Assembly (NCBI GenBank): GCA_964393375.1
Contig: CAYMTM010000001.1
Location: 258 to 64,257, forward strand
DNA from: an uncultured Rhodospirillaceae bacterium
GTDB taxonomy: Bacteria; Pseudomonadota; Alphaproteobacteria; JAEULC01
Direction of reading: 5' to 3'
DNA length: 64,000 nt
A program made the position numbers and the translations under genes. The notes under the pieces were generated by a model. The model was not told where the DNA came from. It saw only the letters and a list, made by a program, of their open reading frames with translations, and made no database searches. Every line of letters starts with the position of its first letter. Positions within the stretch are counted from its first letter, which is position 1. Below are positions 34,084-54,757 of the stretch, in pieces.

Positions 34084-35403
34084 ATGCGCGTTGCCGTGTT
34101 TGGTTTGGGTTATGTAGGTGTCGTTTCGGCTGCTTGCTTGGCCGAAGGAGGGCATGACGTCATCGGGGTCGACGTCAACCCCGTCAAGGTCAAGATGGTC
34201 TTGGACGGAACGTCACCAATCCTCGAAGATCGCATCGAGGACCTTGTGAAGGCGGCGGTCGCCGCCGGGAAGTTGCGCGCCACGGGCAGCGCCGAAGAGG
34301 CGGTCGCCGGCTCCGACATTTCGCTGATCTCCGCGGGGACTCCCTCGGGCCCCACCGGCGCTCCGATGCTCGACGCCGTCGACGCCTGCGTCGAAGCGAT
34401 CGGGCGGGCCATTCGCAGCGGCAATCCGAACAACCACACGGTCATTGTCCGATCGACAATTCCGCCGGGGACAACGGAGAAGCGCTTGCGGCCGATACTC
34501 GAGAAAGCCAGCGGGCGCACGATCGGCAACGGCCTCGACCTTTGCTTCAATCCGGAATTCCTGCGCGAGGGCTCGTCCGTTCACGATTTTCATCATCCGC
34601 CGCAGACGATCATCGGCTCGTTCACGGCCGAGGGACACGAGGCCGTCGAGCGGCTCTATGCCGGGATCGAGGCGCCCGTCGTCCGCACCAACTGCACGCT
34701 CGCAGAGTCAGTCAAGTATCTTTGCAACGCGTTTCACGCGGTGAAGATCGGCTTTGCCAACGAAGCCGGCGCTGTCCTGAAAGCGATGGGCGTCGATGCC
34801 CGAGACGCGCTGTCGGCGCTATGCAACGACACCGTGCTGAACATTTCGCCCGCCTATCTTCGCCCCGGCTTCGCGTTCGGCGGTTCCTGTCTACCGAAAG
34901 ACCTGAAGGGATTTCTTTACGCTGCCCAGCAGCACAATGTTCGCCTGCCATTTCTGGGACATTTGCTGGAAAGCAATCAGGCGCATATCGACCGCGCGTT
35001 CGACATGATAGCGCGGCTCGGCAGGCGCAAGGTGGCCCTGTTCGGCCTGGCGTTCAAGCCCGGGACGGACGACTTGCGGGAAAGCCCGCTCGTGACACTG
35101 GCAGAACGGTTGATCGGCAAGGGGTACGAACTCGCGATCTACGACCGCTACGTGGATGCAAGCCGCCTGCTGGGGAAGAACCGTGAGTTCATCGATCGCG
35201 AAATTCCGCATTTCGAGCGGCTTCTTGCCGCGAGTGCGGAAGAAGCGATAGCGCGATCCGAGACGATCGTGGTCGGTCATGCCGATCGGGCAGCACAGGC
35301 GGTGATCGCATCGGGCCATGGCGGCAGGCCGGTGATCGACCTGCAGGGGTTGCGCGCGCTGCAGACAGCGGAGGGCATGCGCTACGAGGGCATCTGCTGG
35401 TGA
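34084..35403 (+). CDS. algD: GDP-mannose 6-dehydrogenase (AlgD-type nucleotide-sugar dehydrogenase)
   Basis: 439 aa with SD AGGAG. The alignment with Pseudomonas AlgD (sequence recalled from memory) is nearly colinear: MRVAVFGLGYVGVVSAACL / NPEFLREGSSVHDF / YLRPGFAFGGSCLPKD / FKPGTDDLRESPLVTLAERLIGKGYELAIYDRYV. This is clearly not the UDP-glucose type, which is represented separately at 55924. Confidence 0.85.
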   Translation: MRVAVFGLGYVGVVSAACLAEGGHDVIGVDVNPVKVKMVLDGTSPILEDRIEDLVKAAVAAGKLRATGSAEEAVAGSDISLISAGTPSGPTGAPMLDAVDACVEAIGRAIRSGNPNNHTVIVRSTIPPGTTEKRLRPILEKASGRTIGNGLDLCFNPEFLREGSSVHDFHHPPQTIIGSFTAEGHEAVERLYAGIEAPVVRTNCTLAESVKYLCNAFHAVKIGFANEAGAVLKAMGVDARDALSALCNDTVLNISPAYLRPGFAFGGSCLPKDLKGFLYAAQQHNVRLPFLGHLLESNQAHIDRAFDMIARLGRRKVALFGLAFKPGTDDLRESPLVTLAERLIGKGYELAIYDRYVDASRLLGKNREFIDREIPHFERLLAASAEEAIARSETIVVGHADRAAQAVIASGHGGRPVIDLQGLRALQTAEGMRYEGICW

Positions 35404-36638
35404 GCCGCCGCCGGCTTCTGTTCGTCTCGCCCCAGTTCCTGTTCCCGACGGATGCCGGCGGCAAGATCCGCACCGCGAACATCCTGCGGGGAATGAAGGG
35501 CCGGGAATTCGACATCACCCTCGTTTCGCCCGCTGTCGCTGGCGCAGCCGAGGCCTGGCGGAACGAAATCGCCAAGGTCGCCGACCACTACGCCACATGG
35601 CCGGACCCGACGAAGGGGTTGAGTGGCAAACTGCGGCGCATCTTGAGTGTGCTGCACCGATTGCCGGTAACCGTCGCCGTCGACGTGTCGCGCGCAGGCT
35701 GCGCATTGGTCGGGCGCGCACTTGCGGACCGGTTCGACGTGGTCGTCTTCGACTACGTCCATTCCGCGATATTCAAGCCGGCGCGGTGCCCGACGCCTTC
35801 GGTGTGCCTGACGCACAACGTGGAGGCCGAGATACTCCTGCGGCATGCCAACGTGGAGCGCCGCGCCGCCATGCGACTTCTCTGGCGAAGTCAGCACGCA
35901 AAGATGCAGCGTTTCGAGCGCAAGGCGTTGGCCGGCTTCGACGTGGTGGTCGCAGTTTCCGAGCGGGACGCGCGGATGTTCCGCGATGAGTACGGGCTCT
36001 CGAACGTTGCCTCGATCCCGACTGGGGTAGATTTGGACTATTTCGGCTACGCCGAGCCTTCTGGAACCGTCGCGGATCGACCGCTGGTCGTATTCACAGG
36101 TTCGATGGATTCGCGCGCCAATGTAAACGGTGTCGAATGGTTCATCGATGCAATCTGGCCGCGGGTCGCCAAGGCACATCCTGGCGCGCGCTGCGTCATT
36201 GTCGGGAAGAATCCACCGGAGATGCTGGTTCTGCGGGCGCGGGCGGGGGGGCACGACATTACGTTCACCGGCTTCGTGGACGATGTCCGTCCCTACATGC
36301 GCGGGGCCGATGTTGCGGTTATCCCTCTTCTGGTGGGCGGCGGGACGCGCATCAAGGCATACGAGGCCATGGCGATGGGCGTCCCGATCGTGTCGACCGC
36401 ATTGGGGGTGGAGGGGCTGCCGGTGCAGGACGGCGAGCATCTCCTGGTCTCGGACGATGCCGTGGGGTTCGGCGACCGGGTAGTGGAACTCATAACGAAG
36501 CCTGAACGGCGCTTGGCGATCGCGGCGGCTGCCCGAAGGTTGGTCGAAGAGAATTTTGGGGCAGCGGGCGTCGCCGAGCGGTTCGAGGGCATTTGTCTGG
36601 ATGCAATAGAGAATCATGCAGCAACAGCGCACGTATAA
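35400..36638 (+). CDS. glycosyltransferase family 4 (GT-B, Glycos_transf_1)
   Basis: GTGA overlap with the algD stop. The C-terminal GT4 motifs are present (VGKNPPE...ADVAVIPLLVGGGTRIKAYEAMAMGVPIVST..EG). Confidence 0.8.
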   Translation: MSRRRLLFVSPQFLFPTDAGGKIRTANILRGMKGREFDITLVSPAVAGAAEAWRNEIAKVADHYATWPDPTKGLSGKLRRILSVLHRLPVTVAVDVSRAGCALVGRALADRFDVVVFDYVHSAIFKPARCPTPSVCLTHNVEAEILLRHANVERRAAMRLLWRSQHAKMQRFERKALAGFDVVVAVSERDARMFRDEYGLSNVASIPTGVDLDYFGYAEPSGTVADRPLVVFTGSMDSRANVNGVEWFIDAIWPRVAKAHPGARCVIVGKNPPEMLVLRARAGGHDITFTGFVDDVRPYMRGADVAVIPLLVGGGTRIKAYEAMAMGVPIVSTALGVEGLPVQDGEHLLVSDDAVGFGDRVVELITKPERRLAIAAAARRLVEENFGAAGVAERFEGICLDAIENHAATAHV

Positions 36639-36780: not shown

Positions 36781-39700
36781 CTACCCGAATACGAACTGTT
36801 GTGCGGCGAGTTGGGCGATGGTGGTGTTCTGGAGGAGGATGGAATTGTTGGCGTCGAAGGCGATGGTGACGCCGGCGGCGCTCTGGGACATGTGGGCCTG
36901 GAGTTGGGCGAAGGTGGAGATGCCGTAGAGGTTGGCGTCGTTGAGCAGGATGGTGTCGCCCTGGGATGGGGTGAAGTCGGCGATGGTGTCGCGGCCGCCC
37001 GAGAACTCCCAGACGAACTGGTCGGCGCCCGCCCCGCCGGTCAAGGTGTCGTTGCCCATGCCGCCGGTGAGGAAGTCGTTGCCGTTGCCGCCCTGCAGGA
37101 TGTCGTTGCCCGAGTTGCCGTAGAGGTAGTCGTTGCCGTCGTCGCCCTGGACCAGGTCGTCGCCGGCGCCGCCGAACAAGAGGTCGATGCCGCCGCCGCC
37201 GGCGATGGTGTTGTTGGCGGTGCCGCCGTAGACCAGCTCGTTCTTGGCGCTGCCGGTGTAGTTGGCGCCGGCGCCGGTCTGGACCAGGATGTCGCCGCTG
37301 TCGAGGTAGCTGCCGTCGGCGAGCTTGGGCGTGACGTTCCACAGCGGGTTGTCCTCGAACGACCCCTTGGCGAGGTTGAAGGTCTGGGCGATGACGTAGC
37401 CGTAGGCCTCGACCGCCTGGGCCGAGCCGGTGGCGCTGACCAGCGTGGCCATGGCGGCGCGGGCCTGGGCGGCGTAGCCGCCGGACCAGTCGGGATAGCC
37501 CTCCATGGTCATGGTGGCGGAGGCGGTGGCGGGGTCGTAGCCGGAGGCCTGGTAGGCCTCGGCCCAGGTGTCGAGATAGTTGCCCTGGGCGTCGCGGATG
37601 GCGAGGTTATAGGTCGGGCCGGCGGCGGGGTTGTAGCCGAGCTCGCCGCTGGTGAACCGCCCGGCGGAGAAGTTCTCCATCCAGGCCAAGAGCGTGCCGG
37701 CGTCGGCGTAGCCGCGGCTGTAGGCCTCGCCGAGCACGGTGATCAGGTAGTCCTGCTGCCAGGGGGCCATGATCGTGCCGCTGCCGTCGCCGTAGTAGGA
37801 ATCGATCCAGCCCTCGAGCTGGCCGGCGGCGTCGTTCCTGCCGCCGGTGACGTAGGTCTGGACCAGGTAGGCGAGGTTGGATTTGACCAGCCCGTCGAAG
37901 TAGGCCTTCATCGGATCGCCGTTGGGGGTGATGTAGGCGGCGTCCATCAGGTCGCGCAGGGTCCAGGCCAGCGCGCGCAGCTGCTCGGCGCCCGGCGACA
38001 TCACCCCGCCGCCCTCGGTGTAGTAGGGGTCGCGCATGGCGATCTCGGTGGCGGCCTGGGCCTGCAGCTCGTCGAGATAGTAGTGGCTGCCGGTGAAGAG
38101 ATAGGGCAGGTAGCTGAGCGCCGGCGGGTGGGCCAGGTCCGGCGTCCAGCCGGCCAGGCTGGCGCCGCTGGGATAGTCCGGGATGCTGCCGGCGCCGGTC
38201 CCGCGCGAGTCGATCCACAGGTTGGGGTGCTGGTCGACGCGTACCGGGTTAGAGGTCGCCTCGTCGGTGTAGTGCCAGGGCACCGCCCCGGCGGCGTCGG
38301 CCTGGGCCAGCATGACGTCGAGCGCGCGGGCGTCCTGGGTCAACAGATAGCGCGCATACCATTCCGGGATCGGGCCGATATCCGGCCGGCCGCCGGTCTG
38401 CGGCATGTACTGCAGCACGAAGGCCGCGCCCAGCGGGCCGGTGTCGGCCGCCGCCAGCGCGGCGTAGTCGCCCGCCACCGCGGCCGCGTCGACCCCCTGG
38501 GCGGTGTCGAGCGCCGGCACCGCGCCGGTCTTGATCAGGTAGTCGACGTCGCGCTGCACGTTGATCGAAGGCTCGCCCTTCAGCCACGCCTCGACGTGCC
38601 AGGTCGAATTGGCGTGGTGGAACATGTTGGCTTCGCTGTAGACCACCGTGGCGCCCTGCTTGACCGCCACGTCGTAGGTGAAGGAGTTGATGCCGGGCGT
38701 GAAGGTCGAATCGTTGGCCAGGATCACGTCGGTCATGACGTTGCCGTCGGCCGTCACGCGGATGTCGAAGATCGCCTTCAGGCCCGTCGTCAGCGTGGTC
38801 TGGACGCGGAACTCCGAGGCCTGGCTGCCGCTCATCCAGGTCTCGACCGTGCCGTTGGCGATCGAGCTCTGCAGCAGCTGGGCGACGTTGACCGACTTCA
38901 GGGTGGTGGTGCCGTTGGCGTTGTGCAGGTTGACGTCGAGCGTCACGTTGAGGCCCTTGGCGATCGCGTCCTGCGCGGTCAGGACGGCGCCGCCCGCGGC
39001 CGCCGCGTGCTTCAGCATCACGTCGACCTCGCCGTTGCCGGCCAGCGCCGGCGCCTGCAGGGTCAGGATCGCGTGGCGCACCGAGCCGTCGGCGTTGAGC
39101 GCCTTGACGTCGATCTGCACCGGCACCGAAACGCCGTTGATCGCCGCCACCAGCCCGGTCCCCGGCATCAGGTCGCCGGCTTTGAACACCTGCCCGAACG
39201 AGACGATCGCCGCCGCCTGGGCCGAAGCCGAGGTGTTCTGCAGGGTCATGCCCACCAGATCGCCCGCCGCGCTCGCCGCCGGCACGTCCGGCACCGCGAT
39301 CAGCCCCGTCGTGCTGCCCCCCGTGGAGCCGCCCGTGGAGCCGCCGGTGGAGCCGCCCGTGGAGCCGCCCGTGGAGCCGCCCGTGGACCCGCCGGTGGTG
39401 GTCCCGCCATTGGTCAGGTCGATCACCCGGTCGGCGAACCTGGCGTACTCCACCGAAACCAGGTGGTCGCTGCCCTCGGCCAGCCCGGCGCCGGCGGTGC
39501 CGGTGATCTGCCACGACCCGTCGGCCAGCTTCGCCACCGTGTAGTCGGCGTAGTTGCCCTGGAACACCGCCGTGTCGCTGCCCGTGCCGCCGTCCAGCCA
39601 GTCGTTGCCGCCCCCGCCTTTCAGCGTGTCGTCGCCCGCCATCCCCAGCAGCGTGTCGCCCCCCGACCCGCCGGTGATCGTGTCGTGCCAGCCCGCCCCC

Positions 39701-42700
39701 TGCAGCGCCGAAATCCCCGTCAGCTTGGTGGCGGAGAAGTCCAGCACGCTGCCTTCCCACGACCCCACCACCGTGACGTTGGCATAGCCGCCCGCCGAGA
39801 CCTCCTCGATCCCGCTCGCGGGCGCGAAGTTGCGCAACTGGATCGTCGTGCCGGCCTGCGTCGCCAGGATGATGTCGTAGCCCGCCGTCCCGGTGTCGAC
39901 GATCGTGTCGATGCCGTCGGCGGTACCCCCCACCAGGTAGGTGTCGCTGCCCTGGCCGCCGTCCATCGTGTCGTCGCCGCCGCCGCCGCGGATCACGTCG
40001 TTGCCGGCCCCGCCCCAGATCGTGTCGTGCCAGCCCCCGCCGTTGATCGCCACGATCCCCGTCAAGGTCGTGTTGCGGAAGTCCAGCACGCTGCCGCTCC
40101 ACCAGCCCTGGATCGTCACGTTGGCGTAGCCGTTGGCGGTGATCTCCTCGATCCCGCTCGCGCTCTTGAGCCCGATCGCCGTGCCGGCCTGCGTCGCCGC
40201 GATCCGGTCGAAGCCGGAGGTGCCCGTATCGGCGATCGTGTCGTAGCCGTCCCCGGTGCCCCCCACCAGGTATATGTCGCTGCCCTGGCCCCCGTTCAGC
40301 GTGTCGTCGCCGCCCGCCCCGCGGATCACGTCGTTGCCCGCGGTCCCGTTCAGCACCTCGCCCGAAGCCGTGCCCACGATCGTCGGCGTGTACGTCACCG
40401 TCCCCGCCGAAACCGGGTCCACCACCACGCTCAAGCTTGCCGTCGCCGTCGCCGTCGCGCCCCCGTTCGACTCCGTCGACGTCGCCCTGACCGTCAGCAC
40501 GAAATCCGCGTCCGAGTTCGCCGGCGGCGTGATCTTCAGCCCCGACAACTGCGAAGCCGTCAGCAGCCACGTCCCGTTGCCCTGGTTCGTCCCCGCCGAA
40601 AGCGTCGCCCCCGCCGGAACCCCGGAAATCGTCACCGACAGGCTCTCCGAACCGTCCAGGTCCGTCAGCGCCGCCGAAATGTTCAACCCAATCGCCGTGT
40701 TCACCAGGCCCTGCGCCGGCGAAACCGACAGCGTCGGCATCGACGCCGTCGTGTCGACCGCCGGCAGCGTCACCGGCAGGATCGCCGTGGTCGTCGCCGT
40801 AGATCCGCCGGTCGCCTCCGTCGACTTCGCCGTCACCGTCAGGCTGAAGCTGCTGGAGTTCGCCGGGGGCGTGATGGTCAGGCCGGAAAGCTGGGCCGGC
40901 GTCAGCAGCCACGTGCCGCCGCCCTGGTTGGTCCCCGCCGACAGCGTCGCCCCGGTCGGCACTCCGGCGATCGTGATGGACAGTGACTCCGACCCGTCCG
41001 TGTCGGTCAATGCCGCCGCTATGTTGAGCGGCACCGCCCCGGAGCCCGATCCCGACGCCGGCGACAGGGTCAGGCTCGGCGCGTCGGCCACCGCCGCGAC
41101 CGTCACCGGCAGGCTTGCCGTCGTCGTCGCCTTGGCCCCGCCGTTCGATTCGGTGGACGTGGCCGTCACCGTCAGCGCGAAGTCTGCGTCCGAATTGGCC
41201 TTCGGCGTGATCGTCAGGCCGGAAAGCTGCGCCGGGGTCAGCAGCCACGTGCCGCTGCCCAGGTTGGTGCCGGCCGACAACGTGGCGCCGGCCGGAACGC
41301 CGCTGATCGCGATCGACAGCGTCTCCGACCCGTCGAGATCCGTCAGCGCCGCCGCGATGTTCAGCGCGATCGGCTTGTCCTCCTGGCCAGAGGCGGCCGA
41401 AACGCTGAGCGTCGGCTTCGACGCGGTGATGTCGCCCGACAATCCGCCCGAGGCGAGCTGGCTGACCGCGATCGTGGTGTCGGCGAAGCTGATGAAACTG
41501 ATACCCTGCAGCAGGTCGGTACCGTCGCCGCCCACGTTGTCGCGCACCGTCACGTTGCCGTTGGCCGCAAGGGTCACGGAATAGTTCGCCGCGGCGCCCC
41601 TGAAGACGGCCGTATCGACGCCGCCGCCGCCGATCATCGTGTCGTTGCCGCCGCCGCCGGAAAGGGTATCGTTGCCGGCATTGCCCCTCAGCGTGTTGGC
41701 CAGCGCGTTGCCGGTCAGCGATGCGCCCGTGGTAAGACCGATATTGCCCCACTCGACGTTCGCCGCCAGCGTATAGGCCTGGATGAACGTGCCGACGCCG
41801 TCGTTTCCGCCGCCGGCCGCCTCGATCACCACATCGTTGGCGCTGTAGATGCCGTAGATGTCGTCCCCGGCGCCGCCGATCAGCGTGTCGCCGCCGCCCA
41901 TGCCGAGCAGCACGTTGTTGCCCGCGTTGCCGACCAGCGTCTCGCCGCCACCAGCCGTGCCCCATCCGGTCAGATTGCCGGTGCCCCCGAGTTCGAGGAT
42001 CTCCACGTTCGCCGCGATGGTCGTGTTATCGACGAACGTAATCATGCGGTCGGCCGTGCCCTGGCCCGCCGCCTCGATCACCACGTCGCCGGATTGGTCG
42101 ATATAGTAGGTGTCGTTGCCGGCACCTCCCGACATCGCGTCGGCGCCGGCGCCGCCGTTCAGGACGTTGTCGCCGCTGTTCCCGTAGAGCGTATCGTTGC
42201 CGGCGCTGCCGGCGCCCGCCAGGTTGCCGCTGCCGGTCAGCCGCAGCACCTCGACATTGGCGGAAAGCGTGTAGCTGACGCTGGAATAGATCGTGTCGAT
42301 GCCTTCGCCGGCGTTCTCGGCCACCACGTCGCCGGACGAATCGACGAAATAAGTATCGTCCCCGGCCCCGCCGATCATCGTGTCGTTGCCGGCGCCGCCC
42401 GTCAGCGTATCGTTGCCGGCATTGCCCCTCAGCGTGTTGGCCAGCGCGTTGCCGGTCAGCGATGCGCCCGTGGTAAGACCGATATTGCCCCACTCGACGT
42501 TCGCCGCCAGCGTATAGGCCTGGATGAACGTGCCGACGCCGTCGTTTCCGCCGCCGGCCGCCTCGATCACCACATCGTTGGCGCTGTAGATGCCGTAGAT
42601 GTCGTCCCCGGCGCCGCCGATCAGCGTGTCGCCGCCGCCCATGCCGAGCAGCACGTTGTTGCCCGCGTTGCCGATCAGCGTCTCGCCGCCGCCGGCCGTG

Positions 42701-44418
42701 CCCCAGGCAAGATTGTTGCCGGTGCCGCCGAGCTCGAGGGCTTCCACGTTCGCAGTTAGGTAGTTGTTGAACGCGAAGCCGATGATCTTGTCGGCCGTTC
42801 CCCCGCCGGCCTGCTCGATCACCACGTCGCCGGAATCGTCCACATAGTACGTGTCGTTCCCGGCGCCGCCGATCATCGTGTCGGCGCCCTCGCCGCCGTC
42901 CAAGATATTGTCGCCGCTATTGCCCACGAGGACATTGACGCCGGCATTGCCGGTGCCGGTCAGGTTGCCGCTGCCCGTCAGCTCGAGCCGCTCGATGTCG
43001 GGCGACAGCGTATAGCTGACGCTCGCGCGAACCGTGTCGTAGCCCGCGCCCGGCTGCTCGGCCACGATGTCGCCGGCCGAATCCACGACATACACGTCGT
43101 CGCCGGCACCGCCGGCCATCGAATCGCTGCCGGCGCCGCCGTCCAGCGTGTCGTTGCCGGCATTGCCATAGAGCGTGTTGTTAAGCGAATTGCCGGTCAG
43201 CGTGGCTCCGGCGGTAAGGCCGATAGAACCGAGCTCGACATTGGCCGCTAGAGTGTAAGACTGCAGATAGGTCGCAACCCAATCTGTACCGCCCCCCGCC
43301 GCCTCGGTGACGACATCGCTGGCGTCATCGACCAGGTAAATGTCGTTGCCGGCGCCGCCGATCATTACGTCCGCGCCGCCCATGCCGAGCAGCACGTTGT
43401 TACCCGCGTTGCCGATCAGCGTATCGTTGCCGGCACCGCCCCAGGCGGTCAGGTTGCCGCTCCCGCCGAGTTCGAGAATCTCGACGTTCGCCGCGATCGT
43501 CGTATTGTCGAGCGTGGTTACGATCCGGTCGGCCGTCCCCTGGCCCGACGCCTCGACGACAACGTCGCCCGCGTTGTCGACGTAATAGGTGTCGTTACCG
43601 AGACCGCCGACCATCAGGTCCGCCCCGGCGCGGCCGTCAAGGATATTGTTGCCGCTGTTGCCGTAAAGCGTGTCGTTGCCCGCGGTCCCGGTCGCCATCA
43701 GATCACCGGTCCCCGTGAGTTGCAGCACTTCCACATTGGCAGCCAGCGAGTAGTCGACGCTGGCCAGTACCCGATCAAGCCCATCACCCGGATTCTCTAC
43801 CACCACATCGCCGGTTGAGTCGACGACATAGGTATCATCGCCGGCCCCGCCTGCGGTTGTGTCATTTCCGAGGCCGCCGTCCAGCGTGTCGTTGCCGGCA
43901 TTGCCGTAAAGCGTGTTGGCGAGCCCATTGCCATCGAGGCGAGCGCCGGTGGCAAGCCCGATGGAGCCCAGCTCGACATTGGCCGCCAATGCATAACTCT
44001 GCAGATAGGATGCCACCCAGTCGGTGCCGCCCCCCGCCGCCTCGGTGATGAGATCGCCCGAGTTATCCACAACATAAATGTCGTTGCCGGCTCCGCCGAT
44101 CATGACGTCTGCGCCGGCTCCGCCGATCAATACATTGTTGCCGGCATTGCCAATAAGCGTGTCGGTGCCGGCGCTACCCCAGGCAGTGCCGTTGCCGGAG
44201 CCGCCAAGCTCGAGGATCTCGACGTTCGCCGCGATCGTTGTGTTGGCAACGGTCGACACCATGCGGTCCGCCGTACCCTGGCCCGCCAACTCGACCACCA
44301 CGTCGCCCGCGTCGTCGACGATGTAGGTATCGTTCCCGGCGCCGCCGGCCAGATAGTCCGGGCCCGCCCCGCCATCCAGGGTATCGGTGCCCGTCGTGCC
44401 GAATAAGGTGGTGTTCAA
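36781..44418 (-). CDS. 2545-aa secreted RTX (hemolysin-type calcium-binding repeat) protein with Ig-like repeats and a large central putative polysaccharide-lyase/glycanase-like domain; probable type I secretion substrate
   Basis: TTG start with SD GAGGAT 6 nt upstream.
- aa 1-~1000: dense GGxGxDxUx nonapeptide blocks organised as four or more tandem ~247-aa modules.
- aa ~1000-1400: three ~105-aa repeats (..[48 protein letters not shown]..).
- Then two ~110-aa RTX-containing modules.
- (GGST)7 linker.
- ~680-aa Trp/Tyr-rich non-repeat domain.
- C-terminal RTX block, ending ..QQFVFG. Confidence 0.85.
39325..39410. repeat. tandem 12-nt repeat (ggagccgcccgt)x7 encoding a (GGST)n linker inside the RTX gene
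   Basis: The repeat is seen directly in sequence 39325-39410. It translates on the minus strand as [12 protein letters not shown]... Confidence 0.8.
41640..41970. repeat. internal direct repeat copy A (~270-bp perfect core) of a ~741-bp module in the RTX gene
   Basis: Sequence 41667-41937 is identical to 42408-42678 (tatcgttgccggcattgcccctcagcgtgttggccagcgcgttgccggtcagcgatgcgcccgtggtaagaccg...). Diverged copies of the same module occur near 43140 and 43880. Confidence 0.85.
42380..42710. repeat. internal direct repeat copy B of the same RTX module
   Basis: Offset of 741 bp (247 codons) from copy A. It is perfect over ~270 bp. Confidence 0.85.
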
Positions 44419-44689
44419 AGCAGCATCCTCGCGAAGGCTTTGGCTTCCTAGGCGCCGTCTACCTTTGCGGGCATGCCCTTGGGCCGCATGCCGCGCCCAC
44501 TTCGCGGGGCGCTGGGACCGCTTCAGACGACGCGCCGACCCGTCCGTGCTGTGGTTTTGCCCAGGTCGGACCGACGCTTAATGGTGTGGATAACTCTCTT
44601 AAGGAAAACCTAAGTGTAATGATGAAGCGTTTACTAATGCTTCCAATTTTCGCTGATCTTGAAGCAAGTTAAACGGCAGAAAACACAAC

Positions 44690-44731
44690 GGCCCGGCAGG
44701 TTTAGCCGCCGGGCCGTTAGTCTTTACTTTT
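44690..44731 (+). terminator. intrinsic terminator-like hairpin after the mini-ORF / downstream of the convergent phasin gene
   Basis: Stem GGCCCGGC (44690-44697) pairs with GCCGGGCC (44708-44715) around a 10-nt loop, followed by GTTAGTCTTTACTTTT. A second hairpin CCCCCCTGGCGCGGGGG lies at 44733-44750 and could serve the minus-strand phasin. Confidence 0.5.
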
Positions 44732-44762
44732 AACCCCCCTGGCGCGGGGGCCTGTGACCTTT

Positions 44763-45296
44763 TTAGGCCGCGATCGGCTTGGTCAGCTTTTCGACGGCGA
44801 GGTTGACGCGCGCTTGGATCGGCGCGATCGCGTCGTTGGTCACCTTGAACGACATTTCCGACAGCTTGGTGCCCTCGGCAACCAGCGAGTCGAAATTCGA
44901 GCGCGCGAAGTCGGCCTGCAGGTCGATCACGTCGCGCAGGGTCTTGCAACCCATCAGCGCCTTGGCAGTCGACACCGAGCTCTGCATCGAGCTCTGGGTC
45001 AGCGCCATCACCTGCTTGCTGATCTGCTCGGCGCCCTTGGCGAAGATGGTGCTCGCCTGCACGAAGGCCTCGACGTTCTCCTTGCCGAAGCCCTGGATGT
45101 CCTCACAGCCCTTGATGAAGGCCGAATTGGCCTTCGCCACCTGCTCCTGGGTCATCTGCACGGCCTGCTCATAGCCCTTGGCGGCAGCCTCGTTGCCGGC
45201 CTTCACGAAGGCGTCGAAGGTTTGCTTGCCTGCCTGGACCGCCTCCTCGAACGGCTTCGCGGCAGCCTTGCTGGTGTAGGTCTTCTTCATAGCCAT
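44763..45296 (-). CDS. phaP: phasin (PHA granule-associated protein) family
   Basis: Start at ATG 45296 with SD GAGAGG (MAMKKTYTSKAAAKPFEEAVQAGKQTFDAFVKAGNEAAAKG...). 177 aa, Ala/Lys/Gln-rich amphipathic helices typical of alphaproteobacterial phasins. The 5' extension in the track is rejected. Confidence 0.8.
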   Translation of the reverse strand: MAMKKTYTSKAAAKPFEEAVQAGKQTFDAFVKAGNEAAAKGYEQAVQMTQEQVAKANSAFIKGCEDIQGFGKENVEAFVQASTIFAKGAEQISKQVMALTQSSMQSSVSTAKALMGCKTLRDVIDLQADFARSNFDSLVAEGTKLSEMSFKVTNDAIAPIQARVNLAVEKLTKPIAA

Positions 45297-45433
45297 GATA
45301 CCTCTCATTTCGGGGAGCATTTCGCTTTGCTGCAATGCAGCATGAGGGCAATTTGGCATATGTCCGCCGTTTGTCAAGGGTTTTTGTGCGCCGCAACATG
45401 GGTTGCTTCGGCAGCGCAGCGACACCTGATCGT

Positions 45434-45454
45434 CAATGTTATGTTATTACATTG
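45434..45454. promoter_or_regulatory. candidate Zur box (imperfect palindrome CAATGTTATGTTATTACATTG) upstream of the znu genes
   Basis: The left half CAATGTTATG matches the reverse complement of the right half at 8 of 10 positions. It has the ATGTTAT core of Zur operators. It lies in the phaP / znuC intergenic region. Confidence 0.5.
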
Positions 45455-45525
45455 ACCTTCCGGTGCCATTGCGTTCATCTAATACGCCAACCGGATCGCT
45501 ATAGCCCGCATCGCCATCACACGCG

Positions 45526-45720
45526 GTGAGCCGAATGGACCAGCCAGACAACCATGCGCCGGCGCGAGCGCCAGCAGGGGAGCCGCACGCGCCTGGCCAT
45601 GCCGGGCGGCGCTGGTCGGCGCTGGCGAGCGATGCCCGCGGGCGCCTGCTGCGGGTCGGTGCGCTCGTCGCGGTGCTGTGGCTGGCGGTCGGATGGGCGC
45701 TTGGCGTGGGGGCGCCGTGA
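45526..45720 (+). CDS. possible small membrane protein upstream of znuC (speculative)
   Basis: 64-aa ORF with a C-terminal hydrophobic helix LLRVGALVAVLWLAVGWALGV. Its TGA overlaps the znuC ATG. It lies between the Zur box and znuC. The only support is position and GC-frame. Confidence 0.25.
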   Translation: MSRMDQPDNHAPARAPAGEPHAPGHAGRRWSALASDARGRLLRVGALVAVLWLAVGWALGVGAP

Positions 45721-46466
45721 TGCAATCCGCGGCCATCCGCATCCACGACCTCACGGTCGCCTATGACCGGCATCCCGCCATCCACCACGTCTCCGGCGAG
45801 TTCAAGCCGGGCAGCCTGACCGCGGTCGTCGGCCCGAACGGTGCCGGCAAGACCACGTTGATTAAGGCGATCGTCGGCCTGCTGCAGCCCACCGCGGGCC
45901 ATGTCGAGCTGGTCGGCGTGGAGCGCCGGGACATAGCCTACCTGCCGCAGCAGGCCGAAATCGACCGCAGCTTTCCCATCAGCGTGATCGACGCGGTCCT
46001 CACCGGCCATTGGCGGCGCGTCGGCGCATTCGGCGGCGTGCCCGAGCGGCTGCGCGCGGAGGCCCTGCGCACGCTCGATGGCGTGGGCCTGGGCGGTTTC
46101 GAGAACCGCCCGATCGGCACGCTGTCGGCCGGGCAGTTCCAGCGCGCGCTGTTTGCGCGGATGATGCTGCAGGACGCGCCGCTGATCCTGCTCGACGAGC
46201 CGTTCAACGCGATCGACGCGCGCACCACGCACGACCTTCTCGATCTCGTGCGCCGCTGGCACGGCGAGAATCGCACGATCGTGACCGTGCTGCACGACAT
46301 GGAGATGGTGCGCGCGCATTTCCCCGATTGCCTGATGGTGGCGCGCGAGTGCGTGGGCTGGGGCCCCACGCCGGAGGTGGCGACGCCAATGAACCTGCTG
46401 CGCGCGCGGCAGATGTCGGAGGCATGGGACGACGAGGCCGAACGCTGCCTGCGGCACTCGGCGTGA
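45720..46466 (+). CDS. znuC: zinc ABC transporter ATP-binding protein
   Basis: ATG 45720 (MQSAAIRIHDLTVAY...). Walker A GPNGAGKTT, LSAGQFQRALFARML, LLDEPFNAID. Its position is directly upstream of the ABC-3 permease and a ZnuA-like SBP. Confidence 0.8.
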   Translation: MQSAAIRIHDLTVAYDRHPAIHHVSGEFKPGSLTAVVGPNGAGKTTLIKAIVGLLQPTAGHVELVGVERRDIAYLPQQAEIDRSFPISVIDAVLTGHWRRVGAFGGVPERLRAEALRTLDGVGLGGFENRPIGTLSAGQFQRALFARMMLQDAPLILLDEPFNAIDARTTHDLLDLVRRWHGENRTIVTVLHDMEMVRAHFPDCLMVARECVGWGPTPEVATPMNLLRARQMSEAWDDEAERCLRHSA

Positions 46467-47341
46467 TGCGCATGCTTTACGACCTGCTGATCGGTCCTTT
46501 CGTCGAATTCGCGTTCATGCGCCGGGCGCTGGTCGCCTCGCTGGCGCTGGCGATGGGATGCGGGCCGGTGGGCGTGTTCCTGGTCATCCGGCGCATGAGC
46601 CTGATCGGCGACGCCATGTCGCACGCGGTCCTGCCCGGCGCCGCGCTGGGATTCGTCATCGCCGGCCTGTCGCTGCTCTGGATGAGCCTGGGCGGATTCC
46701 TGGCCGGGCTCCTGGTTGCCCTTATGTCGGGCCTCATCTCGCGCGCCACGACCTTGCGCGAGGACGCCAGCTTCGCCGCCTTCTATCTGATCTCGCTGGC
46801 GACGGGCGTCGTGCTGGTGTCGACCCACGGCAGCAATATCGACCTGATCCATGTACTGTTCGGCACCATCCTTGCGGTCGACGACGCGGCCCTGCTCCTG
46901 GTGGCGACGATCAGTTCGGCCACGCTGGCGATCCTGGCGCTGGTCTATCGGCCGCTGATCATCGAATGCTTCGATCCGGGCTTCCTGAGCGCCGCCGGGG
47001 TACGCGGCGGGGCGTATCACGCGCTGTTCATGGTGCTGGTCGTGGTCAACCTGGTCGCCGGGTTCCAGGCGCTGGGCACGCTGATGGCCGTGGGCATGAT
47101 GATGCTGCCGGCGACCGCCGCCCGGTTCTGGGCGCGCGAGATCTGGCCCTTGTGCACCATTGCGGTCGCCATCGGCGCAGGGTCGGGTGCGGTCGGGCTG
47201 CTGATCTCCTATCACGTCGATCTGCCCTCCGGGCCGGCCATCGTGCTGACCGCGGGCGCCGCCTATCTGGCCTCGATGGCGTTCGGCTCGAACGACTCCC
47301 TGCTCGCCCGCTACCTGCCCCGCGCCCATCTGCGGGCTTGA
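46466..47341 (+). CDS. znuB: zinc/manganese ABC transporter permease (ABC-3 family)
   Basis: The ATG overlaps the znuC TGA (MRMLYDLLIGPFVEFAFMRRALVASLALAMGCGPVGVFLV...). It has a polytopic ABC-3 profile. The 443-aa ORF from 46010 in the track is off-frame over znuC and is rejected. Confidence 0.8.
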   Translation: MRMLYDLLIGPFVEFAFMRRALVASLALAMGCGPVGVFLVIRRMSLIGDAMSHAVLPGAALGFVIAGLSLLWMSLGGFLAGLLVALMSGLISRATTLREDASFAAFYLISLATGVVLVSTHGSNIDLIHVLFGTILAVDDAALLLVATISSATLAILALVYRPLIIECFDPGFLSAAGVRGGAYHALFMVLVVVNLVAGFQALGTLMAVGMMMLPATAARFWAREIWPLCTIAVAIGAGSGAVGLLISYHVDLPSGPAIVLTAGAAYLASMAFGSNDSLLARYLPRAHLRA

Positions 47342-47377
47342 TCTCGTTCGACAGGTCCGGAGAAAGGAGACCTCCGA

Positions 47378-48337
47378 GTGGTTATGTTATTTCGTTGCAT
47401 TACGGCGGTGTTCTTCTTATCCGCCCTCTGCGGCCCCAGCGCAGCGCAGAGCCCGATCAAGGCGGTCGCCACGTTCAGCATTCTGGGCGACATAGTGAAG
47501 AATGTCGGTGGCGAGCGGGTCGCGGTGACGACCCTGGTCGGGCCGGACGGCGACGCCCATGTCTTCCAGCCCTCGCCCGCCGATGCCAGGGCGGTGGCGG
47601 ATGCCAGGGTCGTCTTCATCAACGGTCTCGGCTTCGAAGGCTGGATCGAGCGCCTGACCGAGAGCGCCGGCTATAAAGGCACGGTCGTCACCGCCACCGC
47701 CGGTATCCAGCCGCAAAAAATGGCGGTGGAGGAACAGGGCGGCGGCCATGCGCATGCCCACGGCCATTCCCACGCGGGCAAGGAGAAGGGTGCGCACGCG
47801 CACGGCGCGATCGATCCGCATGCCTGGCAGGATCTGCGCAATGCCCTGGTCTATCTCGACAACATCGCCGCCGGGCTGGCAGCGGCGGACCCGGCCGGTG
47901 CCGCGACGTACAAGGCGAACGCCGAGGCTTACAGGAAGCAGCTGACGGAACTCGACGCCTGGGTGAAAGCAGAGATCGGCCAGGTGCCCAAGGCCAAGCG
48001 CCGCGTGATCACTTCGCACGACGCCTTCGGGTATTTCGCGACAGCCTATGGAGTGAGGTTCGTGGCGCCCGTGGGCATGAGCACCGATGCCGAGCCTTCG
48101 GCCAGGCAGGTCGCGGCGCTGATCCGCCAGATCAAGAAGGAAAAGATCACCGCCTTGTTCGTCGAGAACATCACCAACCCCAGGCTGATCGACCAGATCG
48201 CCAAGGAGACCGGCGTGAAACCGGGCGGCGCGCTCTACTCCGACGCGCTCTCCAAGCCGGGCCAAGGCGCGGACACGTACATCAAGATGTTCCGCCACAA
48301 CGTCCAGATGCTGAAGGCGGCGATGATGGGGAACTAG
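47378..48337 (+). CDS. znuA: periplasmic zinc-binding protein (ZnuA/TroA family) with His-rich loop
   Basis: SD AAAGGAGA. Signal peptide. His-rich loop GGGHAHAHGHSHAGKEKGAHAHG. Conserved metal ligands HVFQP / DPHAWQ. Confidence 0.8.
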   Translation: MVMLFRCITAVFFLSALCGPSAAQSPIKAVATFSILGDIVKNVGGERVAVTTLVGPDGDAHVFQPSPADARAVADARVVFINGLGFEGWIERLTESAGYKGTVVTATAGIQPQKMAVEEQGGGHAHAHGHSHAGKEKGAHAHGAIDPHAWQDLRNALVYLDNIAAGLAAADPAGAATYKANAEAYRKQLTELDAWVKAEIGQVPKAKRRVITSHDAFGYFATAYGVRFVAPVGMSTDAEPSARQVAALIRQIKKEKITALFVENITNPRLIDQIAKETGVKPGGALYSDALSKPGQGADTYIKMFRHNVQMLKAAMMGN

Positions 48338-48378
48338 GGGAGCGGGCGGCGCATCCGCCTGCGAGCCGGCATCGAATA

Positions 48379-48396
48379 GAAATGTTATAACGTTTC
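48379..48396. promoter_or_regulatory. candidate Zur box GAAATGTTATAACGTTTC
   Basis: Near-perfect 18-bp palindrome (8 of 9 half-site matches). It sits 21 nt upstream of the ATG at 48417, overlapping the likely -10 region and just 5' of the SD AGGAGGA. Confidence 0.55.
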
Positions 48397-48416
48397 ATAT
48401 AAGAGGAGGACTGGGG

Positions 48417-49847
48417 ATGAATCCTCGAACGGAGTCCGGGCGCCATGGGCGCCGATCGTCCAGCCGGCCTTGGGCCACCTGGTTGGGCGCGGTCGCGGTG
48501 GGCCTGTTCGCGGCAACGGCAACGCAGGCCCAGACCCTCGCCGACTGCGATGCGGCGATCACAGGGCTGCGCGCCGGCATGACCGCGACGCGGAACGAGG
48601 TCGGCCGCGCCGGGGCGCAAGGGCATTTGCGGGCGGCCGAGCGCGAGCACGAGGACCAAAACGTGGCGGCATGTCTTGCGGAGGTGACGGCAGGGACGGC
48701 GGCGCTGGGCGCTGGCGAATTCCAGCCCACCGTGACGGGCGTGCTGCATCTCGACCTGCAAAACGACTACACCTATCGTCGGCGCGGCGGCCGCGCCACG
48801 AACGACCTGCGTTCGGACAGCGAGTTCGAGATGGCGGTCAACCTGACGCCGTTCTTCTCGATCGTCTCGCTGCTGCACTCCGAGCCGGTGCGCGAGCCGC
48901 CGGACGGCGACCGGTTCCTGACCGACAACGCGCTGTGGTTGGAGGAGCTTTACGGCCGCTTCGACTGGCAGCGCGGCGGCATCCGCGTGGGCAAATTCAA
49001 CCCGGCCTTCGGCAAGGCCTGGGACGAGCATGTTGCGCCCGGCATCTATGGCCGCTTCTTCGCCGAGGACAGCTACAAGCTGACCGAAGGAATGGGCTTC
49101 AACCCCTATCTGCGCTTCGACGGCGGACCGGCCGGCAAGGTGACCGCGGGCGCCAGCGTCTTCAAGTTCGACAACACCTGGCTCAGCAATTCGGCGTTCG
49201 TCAGCCCCCGCTTCGACGAGGATCGAACCGAGCGCGTGGGCCGCAACCGCGTCCGTTTTGGCGGCCCGGGCAACACGGCCTGGCCCACCTCGCTCGCGGC
49301 GACGGTCGAGGGCGAGAACCTGCTTGGCGTCGCCGGCCTCGGCTGGAACATCGGGGCCGAGCGTCTGGCGCGCGGGCGGGCGGCGGGCGACACCTCGCAA
49401 TACGGCGCCGTAGCCGGGCTCACCTATGACGGCCCGATCGCGCCGCTGTGGGACCTGAGGGCGGTGGCGGAAGTCGCCTATCTGCGCCGGTTCGAGGGTG
49501 CGCGGCACGACAACCTGGTTGCGACCGTTGGCGCCGAGGCGACCTACGACAAGACCTGGCGCTTCTTCGCCCACTACGCCCAGGCCCGACGGCAGAGCGA
49601 GCGTACCCTGACGAACCCCATCCAGGTCGAGGACGAGGACGGCAACCTGGTGGACGATGTCGAGCAGTTCGACCTGCGGGAGACCGCGATCGACCGAATC
49701 TACAGCGTGGGCGTCGGCTACAGCTTCGATTTCGGGCTGAACCTCGACCTGGCCTGGGTGCGCCGAACCGGCGACCGCGAGGCGCTGGTGCGCGACACGG
49801 CGCGCGACGGCATCGGATTTCGCGCGCATTACGCGTTTACGTTCTAA
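48417..49847 (+). CDS. putative outer-membrane beta-barrel protein, probably Zur-regulated
   Basis: 476 aa. N-terminal signal region (..WLGAVAVGLFAATATQAQT). Alternating amphipathic beta-strands. The C-terminus ..RAHYAFTF ends with an aromatic residue, typical of OMP barrels. It is preceded by a Zur-box-like palindrome. Confidence 0.5.
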   Translation: MNPRTESGRHGRRSSSRPWATWLGAVAVGLFAATATQAQTLADCDAAITGLRAGMTATRNEVGRAGAQGHLRAAEREHEDQNVAACLAEVTAGTAALGAGEFQPTVTGVLHLDLQNDYTYRRRGGRATNDLRSDSEFEMAVNLTPFFSIVSLLHSEPVREPPDGDRFLTDNALWLEELYGRFDWQRGGIRVGKFNPAFGKAWDEHVAPGIYGRFFAEDSYKLTEGMGFNPYLRFDGGPAGKVTAGASVFKFDNTWLSNSAFVSPRFDEDRTERVGRNRVRFGGPGNTAWPTSLAATVEGENLLGVAGLGWNIGAERLARGRAAGDTSQYGAVAGLTYDGPIAPLWDLRAVAEVAYLRRFEGARHDNLVATVGAEATYDKTWRFFAHYAQARRQSERTLTNPIQVEDEDGNLVDDVEQFDLRETAIDRIYSVGVGYSFDFGLNLDLAWVRRTGDREALVRDTARDGIGFRAHYAFTF

Positions 49848-49994
49848 ACGCGCCGGGAGCGCCACGCTCCCCCTCAGTAGCCAACCCCTGCCCGCTTTGT
49901 TAGGGTCCGCCGCCGCCGGGGCGCCCCTTGGCTCGCCGTGTGGCGCGCCCTATCTAGGGGTCATCCCGGCCGAGGGTTGGAGATCCGCAGAACC

Positions 49995-51062
49995 ATGTCG
50001 CAAGCAGTGCCCGTCACCGTGCTCACCGGCTTCCTGGGGGCCGGCAAGACCACCTTGCTCAACCGCATCCTCACCCAGCCGCACGGCAGGAAATACGCGG
50101 TCATCGTCAACGAGTTCGGCGAGCTGGGCATCGACGGCGACCTGGTGGTCGGCGCCGACGAGGAAGTGTTCGAGATGAACAACGGCTGCATCTGCTGCAC
50201 CGTGCGCGGCGATTTGATCCGCATCATCTCGGGCCTGATGAAGCGCAAGGGCAAGTTCGACGCCATCGTGATCGAAACCACGGGCCTGGCGGACCCGGCG
50301 CCGGTCGCGCAGACCTTCTTCGTCGACGACGAGGTCAAGGACCGCGCCAAGCTCGATTCGATCGTGACTGTCGTCGACGCCAAGCACCTGCCGGCGCGGC
50401 TCAAGGACAGCCGCGAGGCCGAGGAGCAGATCGCCTTTGCCGACGTGATCCTGCTCAACAAGACCGACCTGGTCTCGCCGCAGGAACTTAAGGACGTCGA
50501 GGCGACGATCCGTGCCATCAACCGCTTCGCGGCGATCCATCGCACGCGCCAGTGCGACGTGGACATCGCCAAGCTGCTCGACCGCGGCGCCTTCGACCTC
50601 GACCGCATCCTTGCGATCGAGCCGGACTTCCTGGATCGCCGGCCAGAGGACCACAACCACGCGCACGATCACGACGATCGCGACGACCACCACGGCCACG
50701 AGCACGGCCATGATCACGCGCACGAGCACGACCATGGCGCCACGGCCGGCGTGCTGCGCCACAACCCCGAGGTGACCAGCGTTTCGCTGCGGCTGGACAG
50801 GCCCCTGTCGGTCGAGAAATTCGAGAACTGGATTCGCCACCTGCTGGCCGCCAAGGGCCAGGACATCCTCCGGATGAAAGGCATCCTCAACATGGCCGGC
50901 CAGAACCAGCGCTATGTCGTTCACGGCGTGCACATGCAGATCGACGGCAAGCCGACCAGCCCGTGGCGCGAGGGCGAGAAGCGCGAGAGCCGGATCGTCT
51001 TCATCGGCCGCAAGCTGGACGCCGAGGCGCTGAAGCAGGGCTTCGAGGGCTGCGCCGCCTGA
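49995..51062 (+). CDS. COG0523 / CobW-family G3E GTPase metallochaperone (ZigA/YeiR-like) with His-rich insert
   Basis: Start is ATG 49995; the 49938 ORF start in the track is an upstream extension. GFLGAGKTTL P-loop, CxCC metal motif (NGCICCTVRGD), and a His/Asp-rich stretch HNHAHDHDDRDDHHGHEHGHDHAHEHDHG. Confidence 0.85.
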   Translation: MSQAVPVTVLTGFLGAGKTTLLNRILTQPHGRKYAVIVNEFGELGIDGDLVVGADEEVFEMNNGCICCTVRGDLIRIISGLMKRKGKFDAIVIETTGLADPAPVAQTFFVDDEVKDRAKLDSIVTVVDAKHLPARLKDSREAEEQIAFADVILLNKTDLVSPQELKDVEATIRAINRFAAIHRTRQCDVDIAKLLDRGAFDLDRILAIEPDFLDRRPEDHNHAHDHDDRDDHHGHEHGHDHAHEHDHGATAGVLRHNPEVTSVSLRLDRPLSVEKFENWIRHLLAAKGQDILRMKGILNMAGQNQRYVVHGVHMQIDGKPTSPWREGEKRESRIVFIGRKLDAEALKQGFEGCAA

Positions 51063-51065
51063 GCG

Positions 51066-52094
51066 ATGGCCACGCTGGAAGAAACCGCCGTCGCCTGGGA
51101 ACTGGGCGGGCCGGTCGGCGCGCTGGCGTTCGACCGCGCGGGCAAGACACTCGCCTTCGCGCTCGGCGACGGGTCGCTGGCACTGGCCGACCCGCGCACG
51201 CGCGACGCGCCGCGCCGTATTGCCGCGCATGACGGCGCGATCCTCTGCCTGGCGGCGGACGGCGACGAGCCCGCCTTCCTGACCGGCGGCGACGACGGCA
51301 AGCTCAACCGCGTCGCCGCGGACGGCGCGGTCGCCGCCATCCACGCCTGGAAGGGCAAATGGGTCGAGCATGTGCTGGCGCCCGCGGGCGCGCCGTTCCG
51401 CGCCGCCGCGGTCGGCAGATGCGCCTACCTGTTCCAGCGCAAGGGCGCGGAGGCGCCGGCGGAACTGCAGCATCCCAGCACCGTGGGCGGCATCGCGGCC
51501 AACCCCAAGGCCAAGCGCCTGGCGGTCGCGCATTACAACGGCGTCAGCCTGTGGTGGACGCATGGGCGCGAGCAGAAGCCGAAGCTGCTCAAGTGGTCGG
51601 GCTCGCATATCGGCGTGACCTGGAGCCCGGACGGCGAATATGTCGTATCGATGATGCAGGAGAATGCGCTGCACGGCTGGCGTTTGAGCGACGGCCAGGA
51701 CATGCGCATGTCGGGCTACCCGACCAAGGTGCGCTCGGTCGCCTGGTCGCCGCAGCCCTATTTCCTCGCCACCGCGGGCGCCGATCGGATCGTGTGCTGG
51801 CCGTTCTCGGGCTCGGGGCCGATGGGCAAGCCGCCGGTCGAGCTTGGCTATGGCCGTGATGGCATGGTTGCGACGGTGGCGGCGCATCCCAAAGGCGACA
51901 TGATCGCCGCCGGCTATACCGACGGCGCCGTCGCGCTGGCGCGCATCTCCAACAACGCCGCCGGCTTCGCCAAGCCGCCGGGCGGCGGCCGGGTGGCGGC
52001 GCTCGCCTTCGGCCCGGACGGCAAGTGCGTCGCCTACGGCACCGAGGACGGGCTGGCCGGCGTCATCGACCTGCAGGCGCTGGCGCAGGCTTAG
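51066..52094 (+). CDS. WD40 / beta-propeller repeat protein
   Basis: 342 aa with repeated blade motifs ending in GxDG / W (LTGGDDGKLNRV, AHYNGVSLWW, SVAWSP, ATAGADRIVCW). It starts 4 nt after the COG0523 stop. Confidence 0.7.
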   Translation: MATLEETAVAWELGGPVGALAFDRAGKTLAFALGDGSLALADPRTRDAPRRIAAHDGAILCLAADGDEPAFLTGGDDGKLNRVAADGAVAAIHAWKGKWVEHVLAPAGAPFRAAAVGRCAYLFQRKGAEAPAELQHPSTVGGIAANPKAKRLAVAHYNGVSLWWTHGREQKPKLLKWSGSHIGVTWSPDGEYVVSMMQENALHGWRLSDGQDMRMSGYPTKVRSVAWSPQPYFLATAGADRIVCWPFSGSGPMGKPPVELGYGRDGMVATVAAHPKGDMIAAGYTDGAVALARISNNAAGFAKPPGGGRVAALAFGPDGKCVAYGTEDGLAGVIDLQALAQA

Positions 52095-52786: not shown

Positions 52787-52954
52787 GGTCCCTCGATAGC
52801 GCCCGCGCGTGGCGGCACCGTGGCAAGGCGGTGACTCCCTGACTCGAAACGGAAAATTCGGCTTCACGCTGCAATCTCCGTTGGACAGCGAATCGTCATT
52901 TTACTAGACTTCGCGCCGTTTTGCGGGCTGTGGCCCAAAATCTGGTGGAGAGTC

Positions 52955-54298: not shown

Positions 54299-54301
54299 GC
54301 G

Positions 54302-54757
54302 CTACGCCGCCGGGCGGCTCCGCTTGCGGCGCGTGCGCGCCGCGGCGGCCGGCCTGAACTGCCTGCCCCACCCGCTCAGCGCCAGCGCCACGTCGCGGAA
54401 GCCGCGACCGACCTCGGTCAATTCGTAGGCCACGCGCACCGGAGGCCCGGGTTCGACCCGGCGCAGCACCAGGCCGCGCGATTCCAGCTCCTTCAGCCGC
54501 TCCGACAGCATGCGGTCGCCCATCGCGCTCAAGCCCGCGCGCAGCTCGCTGAACCGCAGGGCCCCCTTGGTCTGCAGCATCGCCATGATCAGCCCGTTCC
54601 AGGGCCTGGACAGGACGTCCATCGCGGTCTGGAACCAGGGGCAGAGATGCTCGCAGTGGGGATGCTTCACGGACGATCGTCTCGCATTTGTGAACGAATC
54701 ATTATGCGGCCGGCGACGGGAAAAGGGAAGAAGCGCTTGTTTCTGTGGATAAGCCAC
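54302..54757 (-). CDS. HxlR-family transcriptional regulator
   Basis: CEHLCPW..VLSRPWNGLIMAMLQTKGALRFSELRAGL is the HxlR-type winged HTH. The start is uncertain (ATG 54757 or GTG 54670). It is divergent from the GST gene. Confidence 0.7.
   Translation of the reverse strand: MAYPQKQALLPFSRRRPHNDSFTNARRSSVKHPHCEHLCPWFQTAMDVLSRPWNGLIMAMLQTKGALRFSELRAGLSAMGDRMLSERLKELESRGLVLRRVEPGPPVRVAYELTEVGRGFRDVALALSGWGRQFRPAAAARTRRKRSRPAA

Follow-up and report, generated by a model that had tools for sequence, protein, structure and literature searches.

Probable footprint of a recent intragenic gene conversion between two modules of an RTX gene from an uncultured Rhodospirillaceae bacterium

How do two separate segments of one coding sequence come to be identical letter for letter, and is such an identity kept in order to vary the protein? 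The question is raised by a gene of the repeats-in-toxin (RTX) class in a 64,000-nt stretch of DNA from an uncultured Rhodospirillaceae bacterium (assembly GCA_964393375.1, contig CAYMTM010000001.1, positions 258 to 64,257; hereinafter designated the window, with positions counted from its first letter). A first reading of the letters alone (hereinafter the sequence-only reading) had noticed a long identity between two modules of this gene. We conclude that the two segments, each of 268 bp, probably record a recent gene conversion within the gene, in which the third and fourth of its 741-bp modules took part.

A base-by-base comparison shows that positions 41666-41933 and 42407-42674 agree letter for letter over 268 bp at an offset of 741. 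The sequence-only reading had set the exact span at 41667-41937 against 42408-42678; the identity itself stands, but that span contains one mismatch, at 41934, and the exact run is 268 bp long. The flanks are near-identical, as had been reported, with 8 mismatches in 338 bp between 41627-41964 and 42368-42705, and the diverged sister copies are likewise present: a repeat finder returned a 300-nt family starting at 41612, 42353, 43094 and 43832, with spacings of 741, 741 and 738 and with 97%, 73% and 67% identity to the first copy. Across the 64-kb window the 268-bp pair is the sole exact direct repeat of at least 40 bp within 6 kb. Modules 3 and 4 (hereinafter M3 and M4) carry 57 mismatches over 498 alignable nt, a density at which a mismatch-free run of 268 nt has P <= 6e-20; if the neighbouring 165 nt, 71.5% identical, are taken as the standard, P falls to ~1e-39. 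The identity is therefore far beyond chance.

Both segments lie inside the RTX gene, as the sequence-only reading had placed them, in a single minus-strand open reading frame (ORF) with a G+C content at third codon positions (GC3) of 0.91 and a match to Pfam HemolysinCabind (PF00353). The N-terminal array of the encoded protein (aa 28-932), parsed by G[ND]D[TIV]Y anchors at a spacing of 81-84 aa, consists of 11 units of ~82 aa that follow one another as A B C A B C A B C A B and so make up 3.67 super-modules of 247 aa each (Table 1). The strongest self-periodicity of the protein is 247 aa (454 matches), and the periods of 81-83 aa give 321-343 matches. In 30 related RTX-array proteins the 81-aa base unit usually sets the strongest period, and the contrast with the 247-aa period argues that the present array grew by duplication of three-unit blocks into a higher-order repeat. 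Module pairs other than the M3-M4 block are 69-75% identical in DNA overall and 53-88% identical per 60-nt window. Codon counts for unit pairs of the same type give proportions of synonymous differences (pS) of 0.30-0.64 and of nonsynonymous differences (pN) of 0.11-0.26, with the exception of B3-B4 (pS 0.06, pN 0.02). As same-type units differ at 30-64% of synonymous sites, the array is old, and judged from these codon counts it is under purifying selection.

Against this diverged background the identity between M3 and M4 is patchy. Successive 60-nt windows are 82, 62, 75, 98, 100, 100, 100 and 92% identical, after which the array ends. Beyond the 5' edge (in gene orientation) of the high-identity block in M4, identity falls to 62-82%, and the 3' edge of the block is the array end. 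A near-identical block that includes synonymous sites, with abrupt boundaries and set within diverged paralogues, is how a conversion tract presents itself. Purifying selection alone was considered as the cause and ruled out: synonymous sites are identical too, so selection at the protein level cannot explain the identity.

The sequence-only reading had offered either a very recent duplication or ongoing gene conversion. Its view that the identity is recent and recombinational fits our results, as does conversion; duplication does not. A very recent tandem duplication of the whole 741-bp module by unequal crossing-over, with the identity marking the part that has not yet diverged, would agree with the regular period of the family and with an array that clearly grew by three-unit blocks. 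It would, however, equalise all 741 positions, whereas 268 are exact and 338 near-exact, and the first 180 nt of M3 and M4 are only 62-82% identical. Over module nt 61-120, A4 is nearer to A1 (78%) and A2 (77%) than to A3 (62%), and M4 was thus not recently copied from M3; C3 is without a recent partner (pS 0.41-0.59 against C1 and C2). Because of this mosaic pattern we reject whole-module duplication, which we judge very unlikely.

In the gene conversion that we favour, a stretch of one module, running from the tail of unit A through nearly all of unit B, would have been copied over the paralogue one period away, which would erase all differences, synonymous ones included. The mechanism would be a RecA-type, non-reciprocal homologous recombination between tandem paralogues, arising as a by-product of the repeat architecture and not as a programmed switch, and the 268 identical bp may now serve as substrate for the in-frame loss or gain of one 247-aa super-module. 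Three points weigh against conversion. The searched collections hold no outgroup for the array, the best array relative (in metagenome contigs) being 52% identical, and the best whole-gene relative, locus L029 at 72%, is cut off before the array. With no outgroup and with B3 and B4 now alike, neither the donor nor the state before conversion is observable. Since the 3' edge of the block coincides with the array end, there is only one clean homology-to-homology breakpoint. Finally, all assemblies are apparently short-read, and extra identical 741-bp loops would assemble to the same sequence.

The last point bears on whether the repeat could be an effect of assembly. Exact-sequence look-ups returned near-identical contigs in several JGI metagenomes and Logan assemblies; neighbourhood contigs from six JGI metagenome samples and two Logan runs match the window at 99.93% identity or more and are gapless wherever they cover it. 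One of them, L118 (JGI 3300037465, 17,859 bp), is an independent assembly collinear with window 41066-58442, with 3 single-nucleotide differences, all outside the gene, and 0 gaps; it holds both 268-bp copies, identical and 741 bp apart. Two others, L111 (JGI 3300037501) and L114 (JGI 3300043177), share an end at 41792, 127 nt past 41665, the last base by which the copies can be told apart, and L119 (JGI 3300037501) starts at 42407, the edge of the upper copy. These break points match the output of a k = 127 de Bruijn assembler at a two-copy repeat, indicating that the same branch exists in those samples. The repeat is thus real and reproducible across independently assembled samples.

The contig ends also bear out the warning of the sequence-only reading that such a repeat is a trap for short-read assembly. 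It remains to weigh whether further 741-bp loops (the tract, C3 and the 5' part of A4) have been collapsed, or whether strains have been joined chimerically across the tract. Short-read assemblies demonstrably break here, and the 268-bp tract is longer than a 127-mer, so that extra loops or a deletion allele would add no new k-mers. RTX repeat arrays are moreover described as recombination-prone, with repeat numbers under-represented in assemblies (PMC7493085; see also PMC6868369). On the other side, the window contig and L118 show no difference at any base of the array, and the break points in other samples fall precisely where the assembled structure predicts them. A collapse would in any case still need conversion, as even the minimal structure has the tract twice around non-duplicated sequence. 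We therefore regard an assembly effect as unlikely. The practical consequence is that k = 127 assemblies of this organism are documented to break at the 268-bp exact repeat, and a short-read module count for the RTX gene should accordingly be taken as a minimum.

Other contig ends fall at the 3' end of the RTX gene. The JGI contigs L112 and L116, which are one contig, end at 36893 and L113 ends at 36897, 113-117 bp into the gene, and the Logan contig L110 stops at 36800. The window shows no repeat at 36800-36897; possible causes are polymorphism between strains or the presence, in those samples, of a second sequence like this one.

We turn to whether the identity serves variation. The sequence-only reading had predicted recombinational expansion and contraction of module number and, with it, a phase- or size-variable surface protein. 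Identity over 268 bp is ample for RecA-dependent recombination, and in-frame loss or gain of a 247-aa super-module across the identical segments is mechanistically plausible. Phase variation does not follow from it: with a length of 741 = 3 x 247 and a place within the ORF, the unit can be gained or lost without a change of frame and gives no on/off switch, and neither the frame shift nor the shift in promoter spacing that marks a contingency locus is predicted. The surface location was not upheld either, for no N-terminal retention module or other anchor was detected and the product looks like a fully secreted exoprotein of the type 1 secretion system (T1SS) kind with an enzyme-like domain. 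Specifically, no retention module of the LapA/MpIBP type was found, RTX repeats beginning at about residue 8 and the N-terminus returning only RTX in Pfam and NCBIfam. As to the tandem immunoglobulin (Ig)-like extender repeats of ~100 aa that characterise adhesins, the protein has three 112-aa repeats with a weak Cadherin_5 match (E = 0.01).

Length polymorphism was absent from the sibling contigs (0 gaps), of which only L118 spans the array, at the same length; given the small short-read sampling, this is a weak negative. The idea that the identity is kept so that the exported protein can vary in length, as in a contingency-type size-variable surface antigen, could draw on the ample substrate for recombination and on precedent, as repeat numbers are reported to depend on the strain in some RTX adhesins (PMC7493085). 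It is hard to reconcile with the gapless contigs from the JGI samples and Logan runs, with a unit whose gain or loss cannot switch the gene on or off, and with a single identical pair in place of a homogenised array. The protein lacks the adhesin retention module, and no recombinase or invertase was found near the RTX gene among the scanned window ORFs. We consider programmed or selected variation extremely improbable.

A comparison with relatives speaks for conversion. In a set of 109 loci homologous to either the catalytic domain or the array, exact direct repeats of 40 bp or longer occur in 41 and of 100 bp or longer in about 12. Two exceed 268 bp: L004, with 343 bp at a period of 348 (14697-15390), and L081, with 443 bp at a period of 1056 (7751-9250). 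In L033, L047 and L051, exact runs of 65-101 bp recur at periods of 729-735. In RTX adhesins, repeats that are 100% identical in DNA are also on record (PMC7493085). Long exact intragenic repeats are therefore known and common in this gene class. In biological terms, the present pair is an ordinary and expected case of concerted evolution inside a tandem-repeat RTX gene.

Table 1 Features of the RTX gene and its repeats (window positions)
Feature	Position	Strand	Details
Complete RTX gene, 2545 aa	36781..44418	-	TTG start 44418-44416, stop at 36781; ORF list, GC3 0.91
Super-module M1	43600..44337	-	aa 28-273; units A1, B1, C1
Super-module M2	42862..43599	-	aa 274-519; units A2, B2, C2; M1-M2 DNA identity 73%
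Super-module M3	42121..42861	-	aa 520-766; units A3, B3, C3
Truncated super-module M4	41623..42120	-	aa 767-932; units A4 and B4 only; array end
Upper exact 268-bp copy	42407..42674	-	aa 582-671, tail of A3 and nearly all of B3; offset-741 match, codon alignment
Lower exact 268-bp copy	41666..41933	-	aa 829-918, tail of unit A4 and nearly all of B4; offset-741 match, codon alignment
Partner high-identity block, module 3	42368..42705	-	mismatch list, sliding identity, alignment
High-identity block, module 4	41627..41964	-	mismatch list, sliding identity, alignment
Three Ig/cadherin-like repeats of ~112 aa	40369..41391	-	336-bp period, 2.7 copies, 62-76% identical; weak Cadherin_5 match, E = 0.01
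Second RTX-containing region, two ~130-aa units	39394..40371	-	PF00353, E = 2e-23; translation
(GGST)n linker	39313..39393	-	12-bp tandem repeat, ~6.9 copies; Tandem Repeats Finder 39316-39398, 92% matches; translation
Beta-sandwich then (alpha/alpha)6 barrel domain, 690 aa	37243..39312	-	distantly PL26 (PcRGLX)-like; putative polysaccharide lyase, epimerase or hydrolase
C-terminal RTX block and tail, T1SS-substrate type	36781..37242	-	phmmer against PDB; NCBIfam below cut-off

PF00353 is the sole Pfam family at significance in the full protein (E = 2e-129, 421 bits against a cut-off of 23, 17 stretches), and through this match the tandem GGxGxDxUx calcium-binding nonapeptides of RTX proteins are recognised. 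All NCBIfam matches are sub-threshold and fall in RTX regions, their alignments reaching the profile ends. An exact look-up of the full 2545-aa protein returned no record. Two ORFs on the opposite strand, 40256-41584 (+) and 42094-42759 (+), were dismissed as high-GC shadow ORFs in view of the GC3 and the strong Pfam match of the minus frame. The TTG start is a plausible one, preceded by GAGGA at N7. A terminator-like hairpin follows the upstream phasin gene and closes it, so the RTX gene probably has its own promoter; a scan for promoters returned no sigma-70-like site ahead of it, but in an alphaproteobacterium such a negative carries no information.

An AlphaFold model of aa 520-1010 places short strands about every 9 residues across the array, as expected of a continuous beta-roll; with a predicted local distance difference test score (pLDDT) of 70.9 and a shallow alignment, this fit is indicative only. 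Such an array would serve as a Ca2+-folded spacer or as a secretion ratchet. The Ig/cadherin-like repeats downstream are without long exact runs and also occur in L029; recent homogenisation is thus confined to the beta-roll array. The 12-bp (GGST)n repeat, which joins the second RTX region to the enzyme-like domain, is a more classically slippage-prone in-frame repeat than the 741-bp module, and no length difference was found in it in L111, L114 and L117.

In phmmer searches against PDB, the last 169 aa match CyaA (1e-42) and residues 491-613 of 617 of Pseudomonas lipase (9e-16), and align also with residues 318-455 of 471 of serralysin and with AlgE R-modules. By this alignment to the ends of known T1SS substrates, an RTX block lies near a predicted, uncleaved C-terminal secretion region. 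Genes for a T1SS ABC transporter, membrane-fusion protein or outer-membrane protein were found neither among the scanned ORFs of the 64-kb window nor among the gene calls of sibling contigs, the only ABC genes in the scan being a Znu-type importer and a peptide importer. T1SS genes commonly adjoin their RTX substrate, though not obligatorily, and the protein is probably exported by a system encoded elsewhere.

The 690-aa domain at aa 1703-2392 is modelled with high confidence (pLDDT 93.5) as beta-sandwiches followed by an (alpha/alpha)6 barrel. Its only Pfam match is PcRGLX_1st, which is sub-threshold, and the model further matches (alpha/alpha)6 epimerases, unsaturated glucuronyl hydrolases and glycoside hydrolase family 76 (GH76). 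The domain has at least 242 homologues, nearly all unnamed and many fused to RTX repeats. None of the 25 loci from genome contigs holds an array orthologue, the N-terminal array being absent from 25 of the 25 genome relatives examined, and the best match among them is 49% identical in the catalytic domain. The closest relative, L029 (JGI 3300062796), is 72% identical in the enzyme domain and shares the downstream architecture. Its contig starts inside the Ig-like repeats, and its frame is broken in the second RTX region, where gene calls are split at ~1276-1279; the break could be a frameshift or an assembly error in the repeats.

The RTX gene is directly adjoined by a nucleotide-sugar dehydrogenase gene and a glycosyltransferase gene of family GT4, and the window holds more glycosyltransferases. 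Polysaccharide genes lie around it at window 3683-9989 and 34084-36638. They include a 1207-aa protein with a galectin-like domain together with GT2 and GT25 domains, and an 885-aa protein with a DXD glycosyltransferase region and a BNR_4 or rhamnosidase-like domain. Elsewhere in the window, 60857-63433 (+) encodes an 858-aa protein with TPR repeats, a glucodextranase-B-like region and a C-terminal caspase (Peptidase_C14) domain.

Taken together, the product is best read as an exoenzyme that is exported by type 1 secretion, acts on polysaccharides and bears a long Ca2+-binding beta-roll array. A wider proposal, which we put forward only tentatively and hold to be doubtful, would make it the first member to be described of a family of type-1-secreted enzymes that has yet to be characterised. 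The family counts at least 242 homologues, most of them from Alphaproteobacteria of soil and fresh water, and combines a PL26-like beta-sandwich with an (alpha/alpha)6 barrel; the enzyme would cleave or epimerise a uronic-acid exopolysaccharide that the adjoining dehydrogenase and glycosyltransferase genes would produce. This lineage would have gained a three-unit higher-order RTX array kept recombinogenic by ongoing gene conversion, so that its Ca2+-folded stalk could vary in 247-aa steps. The protein itself is a by-product of the analysis that we find more interesting than the repeat: it belongs to a family of RTX exoproteins that is widespread and unannotated and carries a distant PL26-like carbohydrate-active domain, its gene here lies beside exopolysaccharide genes, and it could merit biochemical study.

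Several known systems resemble parts of this locus. The closest enzyme is PcRGLX, the exo-rhamnogalacturonan lyase of polysaccharide lyase family 26 (PL26; PDB 5xq3, 5xqo), from which the 690-aa domain differs, with 8-11% sequence identity and a TM-score of ~0.3. PcRGLX is a fungal protein, whereas the present one is a bacterial RTX fusion whose Pfam match stays below the cut-off.

In the streptococcal alpha C protein and in staphylococcal repeat proteins, the whole array is homogenised by conversion and length variation has been demonstrated. The likeness would lie in in-frame paralogous repeats that are homogenised including synonymous sites and offer a substrate for in-frame expansion and contraction. 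The present gene differs in having a single tract in an old, diverged array, with no length variation observed.

The AlgE mannuronan C-5 epimerases of Azotobacter vinelandii form a family built by module duplication and recombination. They are likened to the present protein as secreted, Ca2+-dependent, modular RTX proteins that act on a uronic-acid polysaccharide, although the substrate here is a predicted one. The C-terminal RTX region matches the R-modules of AlgE4 and AlgE6, and the adjoining nucleotide-sugar dehydrogenase and glycosyltransferase genes add to the likeness. The catalytic parts are distinct: the A-module of AlgE is a right-handed beta-helix, whereas the present domain combines a beta-sandwich with an (alpha/alpha)6 barrel and is nearest to PL26.

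The repetitive RTX adhesins MpIBP, LapA, SiiE and Legionella RtxA are likewise giant proteins of T1SS type with a C-terminal RTX block and with internal tandem repeats that can be identical in DNA. Their repeats are Ig-like extenders of ~100 aa; here they are RTX beta-roll units of ~82 aa in a three-unit higher order, with an identical tract in one module pair and with no retention module detected. The cargo of the adhesins consists of ligand-binding adhesion domains, whereas the present protein carries an enzyme-like domain.

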